In this document: piece by piece, positions 1,753-8,924 of the stretch
How the letters are laid out: each line of letters opens with the position of its first letter
Numbering within the stretch: the stretch's first letter is position 1
IMG/VR virus record: IMGVR_UViG_2671180543_000004
DNA from: a virus
Lineage: Duplodnaviria > Heunggongvirae > Uroviricota > Caudoviricetes
Strand: one strand, 5' to 3'
DNA: 9,260 bases
Position numbers and translations under genes: made by a program
The notes under the pieces: model-generated
Seen by the model: only the letters and a program-made list of their open reading frames with translations
Databases searched by the model: none
Told to the model about the DNA's origin: nothing

Positions 1753-2139
1753 TTACTGCCTTTTTGCCAGACCACCTGCCGCCATGCTGGCAGCCACCTC
1801 AGCAGAAACACGAAACGACGTTCCCGGTGAAACAAATATCACTGAACCATTACATTTTGTATGCAGTGTCGCCAGTGCCACCACCGTAACCTGCCCCGTT
1901 TCGTCTCCGGTAACAATGCCTGGCTGTTCAGGAACTGACTCGCCTTTATGCGCGGTCGGATCATCTTTCGATGGTGAGTACGTATCCGGCTCTGCGACCT
2001 CCCCCGCATCTCCAAGCTCTTCCTCCAGTTCCGCCACTCGCTGCGCAATATCTGCCGCACTACCGGAGACATCCGGTTCACGCCCCAGCCTCTCAGCCAG
2101 CTCACAAAGACGTTTCAGGTTTTCTTCTTTCGTAGCCAT
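1753..2139 (-). CDS. Fi: DNA packaging / head assembly protein (lambda gpFI-like), 128 aa
   Basis: MATKEENLKRLCELAERLGRE...RVAELEEEL...VTVVALATLHT...VSPGTSFRVSAEVAASMAAGGLAKRQ vs lambda gpFI (...LALRVAELKEEL...LVTVVALVKLHT...VLPGTAFRVSAGVAAEMTERGLARMQ). Start taken at ATG 2137-2139, preceded by AGGAG, rather than the upstream alternative start at 2172 that lies inside the hairpin. Stop TAA at 1753-1755. Confidence 0.88.
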   Translation of the reverse strand: MATKEENLKRLCELAERLGREPDVSGSAADIAQRVAELEEELGDAGEVAEPDTYSPSKDDPTAHKGESVPEQPGIVTGDETGQVTVVALATLHTKCNGSVIFVSPGTSFRVSAEVAASMAAGGLAKRQ

Positions 2140-2158
2140 ACCCGCTCCTGATTGAATG

Positions 2159-2182
2159 AAAAACGGGAGCATTTAGCTCCCG
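2159..2182 (-). terminator. Putative intrinsic terminator or attenuator hairpin immediately downstream of E
   Basis: Minus-strand reading: CGGGAGC-TAAAT-GCTCCCG (7-bp perfect stem, 5-nt loop; plus-strand 2164-2182) followed by TTTTT (plus-strand A5 at 2159-2163). It starts 9 nt after the E stop and ends 19 nt before the FI start. Confidence 0.5.
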
Positions 2183-2190
2183 CTCACGGA

Positions 2191-3219
2191 TTATTTCACC
2201 TGCACCACCACAAACTCATCCGGATCCGGCAGCACCATCAGCGGCGCGGACTGCGTCATGGTGAATTCACGCGCCGGATCACCCACGGTCAGCCAGTGTT
2301 TCGGATAACGGGAAGACGCCACCACGCCTTCAGACAATGCCTGCGCATCCTGAATGGCACCGTAGCAACGAATACCCTCTGCGGCCGTATTTCCCAGTAC
2401 CAGTGTGCCGTCCGGCAGATAACGTTTTTCGGTACCGTCCTCTGCCACATAGGACGTTTTTGCCACCACGATTGCCAGATCACCATAATACCCTTTGAAG
2501 GACACCACCGCCCCCAGGTCTTTCACTGCCGTTTCCAGCTGTGAATTTGAGCCACGACGGGTATCCAGTTTTTCGCGGAACAGCTTAAAGCCATTCAGCA
2601 GACGCCAGACCTTACCATCCATAATGGCAATATTGATGGTGCCGGAAGCAAAATCACAGTACGCATCCAGATCATGCGTCGGATCAAAGGTATCGCGGTC
2701 CTGAGCGCTCCACTCCGTCCCTCCTGCCTGCGTAATGTTATTTCCCACCGACCGGCCAAAATCGACCTCAACAGTTTCAAACTGCTCTCCTTCCATGGTG
2801 TATTTGCCATACAGCACGGCATTCACCGCCTGCATCTCTTCCACCTGGACAATGGCGTGCTCTTCCTGTTTGAGGTTATCGGTGATGATACGCAGGCGAC
2901 GGTAAGCCGGGCCGTTCAGCTGGGCCGGATCTTCACCGGGAAGACGCTCCACCGCCTGCTGGTAATTAAATTCGTGTTTCGGCTTAACGTAGCCCGGGCG
3001 CAGTACACGAGTTTCACCGCCACGGTGACGCAACACCTTTCCTTCAACAACCGGGGAGACATAGGCCGCCACCGGCGTTTTTCCGGTAATTTTGTCCAGC
3101 ATTACCTCTTCGGTATGGAAATTCACCGTACGGCGGAAAAACAGCTCCAGAAACAGCGCACGAAATTTAACTTTTTGTTCGGTATAACCGAGTAACTGGC
3201 GGGTCGTAAACAATCCCAT
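2191..3219 (-). CDS. E: Major capsid protein (lambda gpE-like), 342 aa
   Basis: Alignable along its whole length with lambda gpE (PGYVKPKHE; AIVQVEEMQAVNAVLYGKYTMEGEQF; NNITQAGGTEWS; KEKLDTRRGSNSQLETAVKDLG; VLGNT; TGDPAREFTMTQSAPLMVLPDPDEFV). ATG at 3217-3219 preceded by GAAAGGAA. Stop TAA at 2191-2193. Confidence 0.95.
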   Translation of the reverse strand: MGLFTTRQLLGYTEQKVKFRALFLELFFRRTVNFHTEEVMLDKITGKTPVAAYVSPVVEGKVLRHRGGETRVLRPGYVKPKHEFNYQQAVERLPGEDPAQLNGPAYRRLRIITDNLKQEEHAIVQVEEMQAVNAVLYGKYTMEGEQFETVEVDFGRSVGNNITQAGGTEWSAQDRDTFDPTHDLDAYCDFASGTINIAIMDGKVWRLLNGFKLFREKLDTRRGSNSQLETAVKDLGAVVSFKGYYGDLAIVVAKTSYVAEDGTEKRYLPDGTLVLGNTAAEGIRCYGAIQDAQALSEGVVASSRYPKHWLTVGDPAREFTMTQSAPLMVLPDPDEFVVVQVK

Positions 3220-3276
3220 AAATCAGTTCCTTTCATTCAGAAATCAGTCAGGCTACCGCAGTGACCTGATAAAATG

Positions 3277-3763: not shown

Positions 3764-5230
3764 TCAAACATGGCGGTTGTGGATGCAGAAACCGGTTCTG
3801 CCCTGCCTGAGGCTGCCGCCNNNNNNNNNNNNNNNNNNNNNNNNNNNNNNNNNNNNNNNNNNNNNNNNNNNNNNNNNNNNNNNNNNNNNNNNNNNNNNNN
3901 NNNNNNNNNNNNNNNNNNNNNNNNNNNNNNNNTTTTCAGCCTGCGCCTCTGCCCCTTTTGCCTCATCCAGGGCCATAATCTGATCACGAAGTGAGGGTCC
4001 GGCATTCGCCTGCGGTGAAGCAGCCAGAATCGGACGGGCTTTTTCCACCGTCATCTCCGGCATCGCCGCCAGCGTTGCCGCCAGTTGTTCACGTCCTTTC
4101 GCCTCTTCACATGCCATAATGCGATCGGCTTCACTCTGCGCAGATACACCAGATTGTTGCGGTGCCGCCACGGCCAGAATCGCCCGGGCCTGCTCAACGC
4201 TCATACCCTGTTGCCCTGCCAGCATCGTGGCCAGTTGTTCACGTCCTTTCGCTTCCTGACACGTCAGGATCCCCATCACTCGCTGGTTCTCCTGCGCGGC
4301 AGCCTCCGTTGCAGTTAATTGCGGCATAGTGCCTCCTGTATCGTGTGTGTTCAGCGTCGCAGCCATCACGCTGATGGCGTCCGACGCATTGATTAATTCA
4401 TCCGCCAGTTCGGCCTCAATACCGGACTGACCTTCAAAAACGGCGGCCTCTGTTCCCATAACCGCATCCACAGATAAACCGGTATACATCGCCACTTTTT
4501 CAGCAAACATCCGGCGCGCCGCATCAATGCGCTGCTGCATGTCCTGGCGAACCTTTGCTGGCAGGGATTCAAACTGATTGCCATCCACCTTGTGCGATCC
4601 GGCGTAAATCAGCGTGATATCCACACCGGCCTGTGCCAGATGGCCGGCATAGCTGACATGGCCCATCATCACCCCAATGGAGCCGATACGGGATGTCTGG
4701 GTAACCAGCCGTCGGGAGCAGGCCGATGCCAGTAACATGGCGGCTGAACAGGCCGTGTCATTGCACAGTGCCCAGACAGGCTTCAGCTGCCGGAGACGGT
4801 AAATCATGTCAGCGCAGTCAAACGCGCCGGTGGCCTGCCCGCCAGAACTGTCAATGTCCAGCAGTACGCCCCGTACCTGAGTGTCCGCCATTGCCTGCTG
4901 AAGACAGGCGACAATGCCGTCATAGCCAGTCATTCCGGAAAATGGCCGCATGCCACCCAGCCGGTGTACCAGCGTGCCGGTCACCGGCAGTACAGCAATA
5001 CCGTTCACCACCCGGTAAACACGGGCAGGTCGTTTGCCTCCGGCCATGTACTCGTCCGTTTCAGCCAGCATCCCGGGAGCGTCAAGCTGTACCTGCTGTT
5101 GCGGTACCGAAAGGCTTGCTGCGCCCATCTCACGCCCGAGCGCGCAAAAGAAAACCCGCGCATAGGCGGGCTCCAGAAGCAGCGGCTCATTGAATGCCGC
5201 AGCGATAATATGTGAAAGATTACGTCTCAC
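3764..5230 (-). CDS. C: Head protease / minor capsid protein C with C-terminal scaffold (Nu3-like) module; S49/ClpP-like peptidase family
   Basis: N-terminal two-thirds aligns with lambda gpC (AFNEPLLLEPAYARVFFCAL; NGIAVLPVTGTLV; KPVWALCNDTACSAAMLLASACSRRLVTQTSRIGSIGVMMGH; ITLIYAGSHKVDGN). GTG start at 5228-5230, preceded by AGGAG, overlapping the end of B as in lambda. The C-terminal region holds about three 50-aa repeats similar to the single lambda module RIMGILNCEEAHGREEQARVLAETPGMTV. The masked gap 3821-3932 interrupts the 3' end, so the true stop may be 3764 or, in the other frame, 3661. Confidence 0.88.
   Translation of the reverse strand: MRRNLSHIIAAAFNEPLLLEPAYARVFFCALGREMGAASLSVPQQQVQLDAPGMLAETDEYMAGGKRPARVYRVVNGIAVLPVTGTLVHRLGGMRPFSGMTGYDGIVACLQQAMADTQVRGVLLDIDSSGGQATGAFDCADMIYRLRQLKPVWALCNDTACSAAMLLASACSRRLVTQTSRIGSIGVMMGHVSYAGHLAQAGVDITLIYAGSHKVDGNQFESLPAKVRQDMQQRIDAARRMFAEKVAMYTGLSVDAVMGTEAAVFEGQSGIEAELADELINASDAISVMAATLNTHDTGGTMPQLTATEAAAQENQRVMGILTCQEAKGREQLATMLAGQQGMSVEQARAILAVAAPQQSGVSAQSEADRIMACEEAKGREQLAATLAAMPEMTVEKARPILAASPQANAGPSLRDQIMALDEAKGAEAQAEXXXXXXXXXXXXXXXXXXXXXXXXXXXXXXXXXXXXXXGGSLRQGRTGFCIHNRHV
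3933..4380 (-). repeat. Intragenic tandem direct repeat, 150-bp period, about 3 imperfect copies, within the 3' part of gene C
   Basis: Identical 23-mer gccagttgttcacgtcctttcgc at 4080-4102 and 4230-4252. gccagaatcg at 4023-4032 and 4173-4182. Both pairs are 150 bp apart. A more diverged copy sits at about 3933-4080. Protein-level repeats: RVMGILTCQEAKGREQLATMLAGQQGMSVEQARAILAVAAPQ / RIMACEEAKGREQLAATLAAMPEMTVEKARPILAASPQ / QIMALDEAKGAEAQAE. Confidence 0.8.
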
Positions 5231-6813
5231 GTGATGTTGTCTCCTCTTCCGGCCTGCGACTCTCCGCTATCTGCTGCTGATACGCCTGGGCTATCCACAC
5301 CGGACGTGAGAGTCCGGCTTTTTCGCGCTCTGCGGATTCCCTGACCTGCTGGCGGAAAATGTCCTGATAATCTTCGCCCATCAGTGCCAGTTCTTTCTCA
5401 TACGTGCTCAGTCCGGCCTCAATGCGCATCACCGATTCCTGGACCTCCTTGAGCCCGTCAATGGCCATTCTTCCGGAGCTAATCCACTCTGCCCGTGACC
5501 AGGCTGAACGCGCCTGGTAAAAATCAAAACGCGCCCGTGGCGGACGAATAATCCCCCGAAGAAGCGCCTCTTCCAGCCAGCAGGAAAACATCTGCGTGGC
5601 CAGCCGGGCCGCAATAAATTTTCGCCGCCCCATAAAATAGCGCCACGACTCATTGGCGGAGGCGCGGGCACTTGAGTAACTGACCTTCGAGTAATCACGG
5701 GACAACTGTTCGTAGGAAACGCCAAGACCGGCTGCAATATACCGCAGCAGCGCCTGTTCAAGCGCCGAAAATCCATTGTCTGAATCCTGCGCTGTCTGCA
5801 GGTTCAGCGCATCGCCAGGAAAAAAGGTGCGGAATTTTAACACCGCCCAGCGTCACGTTATTCGTGTCATACCAGCGGGTGAACTTCTCCAGAATATTAA
5901 TAAGCGGATTATCCTGCTGACCTTGCGGTGCCCCCGCGATATATTCAAATGCCTTTTCGGTATCAAGTTCACTTTCGATTGTGGCTGCATACATCGCCTT
6001 CACAATGGCCGACTGAAGCTGCGTGGCCTGCAGGGAGTCCAGCATCTTCATCCGCTCCATTACGCTGTAAAACTGATTAGCCCCACGGGTCTGCCCGTCC
6101 TCCACCGGCTCAAAAATATGCAGCATGGCCGGACGCCCGGTGGGAAGCTCACGCGGGATCCGCTCCCAGCGTCCGGCACCAGAGAACGGAAAATCATCCT
6201 CACAGATATGGTACGCAATCGCCCGCCCATACCGATCGACCTCAACCCCGGCCCGCAGAAAGTGGTTCCCCATACCGTGTCCTGGCGTGTCCACCCGTTT
6301 CGGACTCACGGCTTTAAAACGCGTACGGAATAACTGCGTGGTTTCCGTATCCCAGACCGGCTGCACAAAGATTTCGCCGTTAAAGGCATGCACGCCCACC
6401 CCTTCACGGATAAATTCCGTAAACGTGCGTTTCCCTTCCACGTCGATCTCGCCAAACATTCCTTCTGCGTATTCCGACCAGGCTGCTTCCACCTCCCCGA
6501 CAAAACTTTTTGCCGTGGTCTCCCGCATCCCCAGCCAACGCCAGTTCAGACGGTAGCTGATAAGAAACATGTGCCCGACGATATGATCCTTATGCAGGGC
6601 CACCGCATTAGCCGCGATACCGTTATTGCGCACCAGATCATCTGCCCGGGCATTCCCCAGACGCAATGCAGGCAACAGGGCCGCATCGGCACTCTGCGCC
6701 GGTGGTAACCACTCTGCCATTTGCCCGCCAAATCCTGCGCCGCCTCCGTTGTAGCTGAGACTCTCACGAAGCGGAACGCCGTTCACATCAATCAGGACAG
6801 GCGTTCGTTTCAT
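5220..6813 (-). pseudogene. B: Portal protein (lambda gpB-like) split by a +1 frameshift into two ORFs (6813..5758 N-terminal, 5843..5220 C-terminal)
   Basis: N-terminal ORF (MKRTPVLID...GGGAGFGGQ...GNARADDLVRNNG...FEPVEDGQTRGANQFYSVMERMKMLDSLQATQLQSAIVKAMYAATIESELD...LGGVKIPHLF) and C-terminal ORF (FFPGDALNLQTAQDSDNGFS...LLRYIAAGLGVSYEQLSR...SGRMAIDGLKEVQE...) both align with lambda gpB. The frames switch at the T6 run (A6 on plus strand, 5820-5825). Removing one T restores PHLFPGDALNLQ, cf. lambda PHLMPGDSLNLQ. Stop TAA at 5220-5222. Confidence 0.85.
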
Positions 6814-7013: not shown

Positions 7014-8924
7014 TCACTCCTCCGGACAGCTTCGCTGCCAGTTCTTCAAGGGTCGGTTGTGCAGTTGCATCCTTGCGGGATGCAACTGCACAGCCAGATC
7101 AAGTTGCCAGCGTTGCACGGACACACGTAATGCCGCATAGGCATACACCAGGCAGTCCAGCGCTTCGTTACGCCGCTTTTTGTTATCCCACAACAGACGC
7201 ATCTTTCCTTTTTCCCACTTTTCCACCAGTTCCTCCGCCACCAGTTGTTGTGCCTCTGTCTGCGAAAAAATCTCCGGATTATCAGGAAAGCGGATGGCAT
7301 ACGATGTGGCCTCATTCACAGGGGTGGGATCGGCCTTCATTCGGGCATAGAGAATTTCTTTTGCGGTATCCGTCCCCACCTCACACAGATACACACCCCG
7401 CTGATTGCGGGTTTTCGGCATGGTGATCACCGGCTTGCCATAGACAGAGGCACCTTTTACCGGCAGTACCCGGAAAATACCGTGTTTTTTTGACCTCTGA
7501 TACACGATTTCGCCATCGATCCCCCCGATATCCCAGCAGACACGGGAAATGGTCATTTCGGTACCGTCTGCATGGCGGTATTTTTTATTGATCGCCGCAT
7601 CCACACGTAACAGCGTCTCTTCCTCATCAGGACGTCCCATGATGATGATTTTATCCACCAGAAAGGCTTCCTCTCCCGGAGCCCACCCCCAGACATACAT
7701 CTCAAAACGGTTTCGCTGCGAGTCAATGCCCGCCGTCAGATAAACCACCCGGACAGGCACCGTTGCCGTGTAAGGCACAACCTTATCCATCAGTACCTGG
7801 TGATCGAGTTTTTCGCCCACGGCCTCTTCCCAGGTCTCGCCCAGCGTGGTGTTCACAAAAGTTTTCACGCCGTTGGGATCTTTCAGTGCATCCAGCCAGT
7901 CACAGACTATCTGTACCCTGGTGGTGAACGGACTGTACGCCGTCCATATATGGAAAGTGATGGAGCGCGGCGGCGGAATTTCATTACCCGAAGCACTGAA
8001 AAACGTCAGACCGTCACACGTCCACATCCCGGTATTGTCACAAATCCAGCGCCCCCCGGTCTGATCAAGTTCAGACTGACGGATCACGCAGCCATTATGT
8101 TCACACAGGTAATACACCGTTTCCGGTTTACCCTTCTCCCATTTCAGGCCAAACGACGTCGCATCATCGCCAAACTTCAGATACTGCTCCTCCCCGCAAT
8201 GAGGGCAAGGGACATAAAACCGCATGAAATGCGCAGATTCATTCGCAGCTTTTTCAATCTGACAGGAGCCTTTAATTTTTGGCGTTGAACCGCGTATGGA
8301 TTTTGGCCATACCGAACCTTCAATACGTTTATCGCCAAGCAGTGTTGGCGAACCTTCTTTTTCCACATCCGGTTCAAACGAGGAGAGTTCGTCATAGCAG
8401 ACCACATCGACAGATTTTTCACGGTAGTTTTTGGCAGCAGCACCACCCAAACACCAGAACCCCACACCAGAGGAAAAACGCTTCAGTGTGAGCGTATTAT
8501 CCCGGTGTTTCCGGCCCAGCCAGGGAGAAAGTTTTTTCAGGCAAGGAACATCACGAATTGTTGCTTCCACGTGAGACTTCATAAAATCTTCAGCAGCTGA
8601 GTCCGTCGGCTGAAAAAGAAGAGTGTTGCGGGATTTGTGCTCAATAAAATACCCGATCACACCAAGCACCATTTTTGTATAACCAACACGGGCAGATTTA
8701 ATCAGGTTAACTGTACGAATCTCGTCATTGCCCATGCAGTTCATGATGGCGACCTGAAACTGCAGCGTTTTCCATTCCCCCTCACCGTATGACGATTCTT
8801 TAGGCAGGTAATAATTTTGATCGGCCCATTCTACAGCCGTCACCGGCAATACCCTGACCAGTGGCTGCAGTGCGATAGTGACTGCCACCATCATATTACT
8901 CAGTTGTTGTTCTGATATATTCAT
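7014..8924 (-). CDS. A: Terminase large subunit (lambda gpA-like), 636 aa
   Basis: Alignable with lambda gpA along its whole length (MNISEQQ... vs lambda MNISNSQ...; TAVEWADQNYYLPKESSYGEGEWKTL vs PQTAVEWADANYYLPKESAYQEGRWETL; KSARVGYTK ATPase motif; FMRFYVPCPHCGEEQYLKFGD; YLTAGIDSQ; RRNEALDC). The ORF track extends to a TTG at 8981, but homology begins at ATG 8922-8924 (MNIS). Stop TGA at 7014-7016. Confidence 0.95.
   Translation of the reverse strand: MNISEQQLSNMMVAVTIALQPLVRVLPVTAVEWADQNYYLPKESSYGEGEWKTLQFQVAIMNCMGNDEIRTVNLIKSARVGYTKMVLGVIGYFIEHKSRNTLLFQPTDSAAEDFMKSHVEATIRDVPCLKKLSPWLGRKHRDNTLTLKRFSSGVGFWCLGGAAAKNYREKSVDVVCYDELSSFEPDVEKEGSPTLLGDKRIEGSVWPKSIRGSTPKIKGSCQIEKAANESAHFMRFYVPCPHCGEEQYLKFGDDATSFGLKWEKGKPETVYYLCEHNGCVIRQSELDQTGGRWICDNTGMWTCDGLTFFSASGNEIPPPRSITFHIWTAYSPFTTRVQIVCDWLDALKDPNGVKTFVNTTLGETWEEAVGEKLDHQVLMDKVVPYTATVPVRVVYLTAGIDSQRNRFEMYVWGWAPGEEAFLVDKIIIMGRPDEEETLLRVDAAINKKYRHADGTEMTISRVCWDIGGIDGEIVYQRSKKHGIFRVLPVKGASVYGKPVITMPKTRNQRGVYLCEVGTDTAKEILYARMKADPTPVNEATSYAIRFPDNPEIFSQTEAQQLVAEELVEKWEKGKMRLLWDNKKRRNEALDCLVYAYAALRVSVQRWQLDLAVQLHPARMQLHNRPLKNWQRSCPEE

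Follow-up and report, generated by a model that had tools for sequence, protein, structure and literature searches.

Downstream of the capsid gene (gene 10) of phage T7 lies the T-phi terminator, a leaky hairpin that provides the capsid mRNA with a stable 3' end. Its activity is experimentally documented; it acts on T7 RNA polymerase, in a phage unrelated to the one considered here. Two phages with a lambda gpE-family capsid gene (E) followed by an FI-type gene, N15 (AF064539, 7053-7073) and phi80 (FN582354, 7221-7245), carry a stem-loop after the major head gene that is annotated as a 'putative rho-independent transcription terminator'; both annotations are predictions, not experiments. In the reference annotations of lambda and phage 21 that we examined, post-capsid hairpins are missing. 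Differences in yield among the lambda late proteins were reportedly put down mainly to translation initiation, in work by Sampson et al. (PNAS, 1988).

We have analyzed a stretch of 9,260 nucleotides from a tailed phage (Caudoviricetes; IMG/VR record IMGVR_UViG_2671180543_000004), referred to below as the window. It carries a hairpin at 2159-2182, directly after its own capsid gene. Read on the minus strand, the junction runs ...GTGAAATAA TCCGTGAG CGGGAGC TAAAT GCTCCCG TTTTT CATTCAATCAGGAGCGGGT ATG (the upstream end can also be given as GGTGAAATAA-TCCGTGAG), with the following features:

2191-3219, minus strand: gene (open reading frame) for the major capsid protein, lambda gpE family; its stop codon TAA (2193-2191) lies 8 nt ahead of the core stem.
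2183-2185, minus strand: GAG, which can lengthen the stem to 10 bp by pairing with the tail's first three U (fold of -17.2 to -17.7 kcal/mol).
2164-2182, minus strand: core RNA hairpin with 5' arm CGGGAGC (2182-2176), loop UAAAU (2175-2171) and 3' arm GCUCCCG (2170-2164).
2155-2163, minus strand: U-rich tail UUUUUCAUU, five U abutting the stem (2163-2159), then two U in the next four nucleotides.
1753-2139, minus strand: gene (open reading frame) for an FI-type DNA-packaging protein, with start codon ATG at 2139-2137 and Shine-Dalgarno sequence AGGAG at 2149-2145.

A sequence-only reading of the window had described a perfect 7-bp stem with a 5-nt loop and a T5 run on the minus strand, set in a 51-nt spacer between E and FI, and each of these elements is found exactly where it had been placed. 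The gene assignments hold as well. The capsid protein shares 94-95% amino-acid identity with the phage 21 clade and about 63% with lambda-type gpE proteins (tblastn), and the downstream gene is annotated 'gpFI: DNA-packaging protein FI' in relatives. In an E. coli relative that is 98.5% identical, PGAP calls the same gene pair, again 51 nt apart, with the upstream member named 'major capsid protein'.

The hairpin is real and does not arise by chance. As the earlier reading had proposed, we calculated its folding energy: the core folds with -13.3 kcal/mol (z = -6.0), a value matched by none of 200 shuffles, the 10-bp form made through the GAG:UUU pairs reaches -17.2 kcal/mol, and the spacer in its 56-nt context reaches -22.2 kcal/mol (z = -3.8). 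Among 30-nt local folds on the minus strand of the window it is the third most stable, and among the 12 most stable it is the only one that is wholly intergenic and has a T run behind it. The most stable local fold of the window is a different element, a perfect 12-bp inverted repeat (GCAGTTGCATCC-CGCAA-GGATGCAACTGC) at 7061-7089, which falls within the 3' end of the gene for the terminase large subunit. On each strand it folds with -22 to -23 kcal/mol, and among the loci compared it is present only in one close relative (L227).

Terminator prediction, a further check that had been proposed, came out divided. A standard terminator scan of the window left the 2159-2182 hairpin out of its output, presumably because the G-T extension of the stem uses up the first three T's. 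Our own strict motif scan of both strands (a stem perfect over 7 bp or more and including five or more GC pairs, a loop of 3-8 nt, then T5) returned this hairpin as its single instance in the window, where 300 dinucleotide shuffles gave 0.003 per window on average. No Rfam 15 family matched any part of the window at the gathering threshold. Folding of both strands finds no T run behind the hairpin on the plus strand, so that only the strand bearing the genes, all head genes included, has terminator-like geometry. Intrinsic terminators are usually described as having a GC-rich stem, roughly 5-14 bp long, and a loop of 3-8 nt; the window offers seven perfect pairs, six of them G-C, and a 5-nt loop. 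Its tail has five consecutive U and seven U in nine nucleotides overall, below the 7-9 U given in PMC9388147. Such canonical geometry, confined to the gene strand, speaks for a genuine partial intrinsic terminator, at which a fixed fraction of polymerases would stop after the capsid gene and leave the head-completion and tail genes with less transcript. So does the annotation of the N15 and phi80 equivalents as putative rho-independent terminators. We nevertheless hold this explanation to be somewhat unlikely: as far as we can infer, every gene downstream is essential, with no promoter of its own in evidence, and further points against it come from the comparison with other phages.

The closest named phages are those of the phage 21 group, with 84-87% DNA identity across the E-FI junction. 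In phage 21 the spacer between E (gene 7) and ORF1 contains the hairpin CGGGGGC-GAAAU-GCCCCCG, unannotated in the phage 21 records and the direct ortholog of the hairpin in the window. The two differ in one loop base and in one stem pair, where a compensated change sets the A-U of the window against G-C in phage 21. The tails differ too: phage 21 has UGUC between the stem and six U (UGUC-UUUUUU), whereas the U run of the window abuts the stem. The motif GGGGGC is common to the hairpin 5' arm and the Shine-Dalgarno region of phage 21. Spacers of the window type are rare, with at least 95% identity in 8 of 5426 complete E. coli genomes; about 1518 records match the window spacer at 80-90% identity, which is the range of the phage-21 type.

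Our searches gave about 200 copies of this spacer within the clade, many of them from contigs that came up repeatedly; with the duplicates removed, 24 distinct sequences are left across a stretch of 89 nt. Stem pairing is intact in every variant, and in the 18 distinct phage-21-clade spacers 125 of 125 stem cells pair. There are three types with a single change in the stem, all of them G-U wobbles on the sense strand and none disruptive; one of them falls at the same pair as the A-U of the window and so represents the intermediate. One variant among the clade spacers has a 1-nt deletion. This points to RNA-level selection on the stem in the phage-21 clade, but covariation within the clade is thin: one pair is changed on both sides (in the window itself), and the score obtained is equalled in 43 of 500 shuffles, a weak control owing to the little variation in the clade. 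The tail and the ribosome-binding region diverge, with indels.

The sequence-only reading could recall no equivalent at this position in lambda, and here it was mistaken. The E-FI spacer of lambda contains AUGGCCC-UUCG-GGGCCAU (J02459, 7163-7180), unannotated in that record, with the same position, strand and 7-bp stem as the hairpin of the window and a tail, UGUUUCUCU, that is likewise U-rich. It differs from the window in having an unrelated sequence, a 4-nt loop and a start only 2 nt past the E stop. The N15 and phi80 stem-loops share with the window the junction between an E-family capsid gene and an FI-type gene, the strand, a 7-bp GC stem and a short loop. Their sequence, GUGGCCC-AUUC-GGGCCAC, has no similarity to CGGGAGC-UAAAU-GCUCCCG of the window, and their tail is CUUUCU rather than U5. 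To the extent that N15 and phi80 carry a putative-terminator annotation, the element is already known, and the copy in the window is the phage-21-clade ortholog of the same hairpin.

The junctions after D, E, L, I, J and lom are the only ones in the lambda late operon with a spacer of 40 nt or more; at the others genes overlap or lie at most 15 nt apart. A terminator-like hairpin is found in the spacers after D, E, I, J and lom, and the one between L and K shows a high degree of structure. The hairpins with a U run after D, I, J and lom (J02459, 6080-6134, 15445-15504, 18904-18964 and 19586-19649) are unannotated.

Conservation in relatives, which had also been suggested as a check, extends well beyond these phages. 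A single-protein search of genome contigs gave 8 loci and a viral-contig search gave close relatives only; both were low in diversity, and lineages were therefore taken not only from the genome-contig search but also from a tblastn search of a phage collection, in which 409 records matched. Inspecting the spacer after the capsid stop lineage by lineage, we find a strong GC hairpin right after the stop, on the gene strand, in about 20 of 22 distinct E-family lineages. The carriers include the phages lambda, phage 21, Gifsy-1, N15, phi80, phiARM81ld, Chi, Saba, AH2, Vibrio K251, Salvo, FoX4, phiA034, DSS3-P1 and phiAxp-2, as well as prophages of Providencia, Trabulsiella, Serratia and E. whittamii; only in NrS-4 and Rostov 7 is the hairpin weak or ambiguous. 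Most of the post-capsid spacers fold more stably than 96-100% of the shuffled versions of themselves, and the stems are unrelated in sequence between lineages. The D-E spacer served as a control: a comparable hairpin is found in only 3-4 of 12 lineages (clear and terminator-like in lambda, N15, phi80 and Vibrio K251), and the 57-nt D-E spacer of the window itself (3220-3276, minus strand) is without a strong hairpin. The post-capsid hairpin is an ordinary feature of head clusters of the lambda and phage-21 type, not a peculiarity of the prophage in the window.

The U-tract follows a different pattern. At least five U in the 8 nt behind the core stem are found in only about 8 of 20 lineages. 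U-rich tails are frequent in the enterobacterial temperate members, a point in favor of partial termination. Against it, the U-tract is not conserved across lineages despite the conserved hairpin, which is kept without a U-tract in Trabulsiella, Chi, Saba, AH2, Salvo and Vibrio K251 (the first three being enteric-host lineages), and the majority phage-21 type has four nucleotides between its stem and its U run. Hosts of high GC content often use terminators without strong U-tracts, so the argument from hairpins that lack one is weaker for lineages that infect such hosts. The distance from the stop to the hairpin has a median of about 9-10 nt across lineages and is 5-8 nt in the window.

The same survey bears on whether the hairpin could be a palindrome acting at the level of DNA (a protein binding site or a recombination joint) or a functionless neutral relic, both of which we consider quite improbable taken together. 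About 20 lineages form a hairpin at the same position from unrelated sequences, and the single-base stem variants of the phage-21 clade all keep a G-U pair on the sense strand, where the opposite strand would have an A-C mismatch. A mosaic joint at the hairpin was rejected: similarity to phage 21 spans the spacer and breaks off inside FI, not at the hairpin. What lends a relic some credit is that this prophage looks defective, which makes a present-day function doubtful, and that a deletion derivative has retained the hairpin despite losing most of D and E. The derivative is a viral contig (L165, 1104-1240) in which the first ~32 codons of D are fused to the last codons of E (CAGGTGAAATAA), with an intact phage-21-type hairpin behind them.

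The signs of decay are as follows. The portal gene of the window is split over two frames (open reading frames 5758-6813 and 5220-5843, with the break at about 5821-5840, minus strand), while the close relative NZ_CP065615 has a single portal gene of 530 amino acids. The sequence suggests either a frameshift in a defective prophage or a sequencing error. In NZ_CP065615 (757000-770000, L231), the nearest complete relative, copies of IS2, IS600 and ISEc60 interrupt the part of the prophage that lies upstream of the terminase genes, which also contains a lysozyme pseudogene with an internal stop and four tRNA genes behind a DNA methyltransferase gene. With the portal gene frameshifted in the window and the nearest complete relative riddled with insertion sequences, the hairpin of this particular prophage may be a relic, perhaps no longer under selection. 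The window also contains two masked runs of N, at 193-442 (250 bases) and 3821-3932 (112 bases), the latter in a place where the close relative has about 48 nt. The N run at 3821-3932 produces a false frame break in the protease/scaffold gene C, and the frameshift that this mimics was rejected as a sign of decay.

The structure might instead work at the level of translation, setting that of FI relative to that of E, for instance by exposing or hiding the FI ribosome-binding site according to whether a ribosome sits at the E stop. In the window, GCUCC of the 3' arm (2166-2170) is complementary to GGAGC in the region of the FI Shine-Dalgarno sequence (2145-2149 region, minus strand). When the stop codon and the next 12 nt are masked to mimic a terminating ribosome, the predicted unpaired probability of the Shine-Dalgarno zone falls from 0.68 to 0.35 in the window, from 0.38 to 0.10 in phage 21 and from 0.57 to 0.16 in phiARM81ld; in these three, once the 5' arm is covered, the 3' arm is predicted to pair with the FI ribosome-binding site. 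For 21 lineages we computed how accessible the FI ribosome-binding zone is when a ribosome occupies the stop and when none does, with shuffled flanks for comparison, and found no consistent effect, most lineages being unchanged. Nor do the Shine-Dalgarno sequence and the stem co-vary in the phage-21 clade, and some chance likeness is to be expected between G-rich stems and purine-rich ribosome-binding sites. A translational device of this kind is improbable, and Shine-Dalgarno sequestration or translational coupling was rejected as the general role since the effect is inconsistent over the 21 lineages. An RNase III site was rejected too, a stem of 7-10 bp being generally far too short for one.

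The earlier reading had left the choice between a partial terminator and a 3' stabilizer. Both fit the comparative data, and the evidence leans towards the stabilizer. We give roughly even chances to the following account: the hairpin forms the 3' terminus of the capsid message, serves mainly to protect the mRNA from degradation and is a leaky terminator at most. It would form in the late mRNA and act mostly after transcription. The long late transcript would be cut and trimmed, 3'-to-5' exonucleases would stall at the hairpin, and the capsid (D-E) segment of the message would outlive the part downstream, a longer life that could help to supply the several hundred capsid subunits needed per virion. 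Minor termination might occur with polymerases that lack the Q antiterminator or a closely following ribosome. The structure, the position, the strand specificity and the conservation of the hairpin are direct observations, from which we infer the stabilizing role and the weak termination.

Four considerations favor stabilization over termination. The hairpin is conserved and the U-tract is not. The hairpin usually lies within reach of a ribosome sitting at the stop codon (about 10 nt): in E. coli, terminator efficiency dropped from about 90% to under 10% once a stop codon had been shifted to 5 bp before the terminator, through repression by the ribosome (PMC4824070), and the stem in the window begins similarly close, 5-8 nt past the stop. 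Lambdoid late operons are normally transcribed by Q-loaded polymerase, on which the Q nozzle blocks the folding of terminator hairpins at the exit channel for RNA (PMC9388147). The hairpin can still form once the RNA has left the polymerase. Finally, terminator-type hairpins increase the abundance of upstream mRNA (PMC11696848). We found no Q gene in the window and no annotated Q in the prophage of the nearest complete relative; Q, if present, argues against termination because the loaded polymerase prevents terminator hairpins (PMC9388147). Against stabilization, a 7-bp stem at -13 kcal/mol is only a moderate barrier to exonucleases, and the copy in the window has the canonical geometry of a terminator, with U5 directly behind the stem. 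The thin covariation in the phage-21 clade and the reported weight of translation initiation in setting lambda late-protein yields also count against it. A literature search returned no 3'-end, coverage, transcript or half-life data for the E-FI junction in any surveyed phage.

By itself the hairpin of the window has little importance. The survey gives it a wider setting: a post-capsid hairpin is nearly universal in head modules of the lambda E family, independent of sequence and kept even without a U-tract. This pattern points to segmental mRNA stabilization that favors capsid supply within one long antiterminated operon.

Yin et al. 2022 (PMC9388147) describe a hypothetical Q-dependent terminator made up of a hairpin, a spacer and a U-tract, in which the spacer would match the Q nozzle's lengthening of the RNA exit channel and the hairpin would terminate Q-loaded polymerase specifically. 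The window lacks this geometry, its spacer between stem and U run being 0 nt, whereas the phage-21 type has UGUC before its six U. That the phage-21 type (hairpin, UGUC, U6) is an example of the proposed Q-dependent terminator seems to us highly improbable; were it so, the variant in the window, with its U run directly on the stem, would be the natural counterpart of standard geometry. The window type and the phage-21 type with its 4-nt spacer form a natural pair for following how Q-loaded polymerase handles different terminator geometries.
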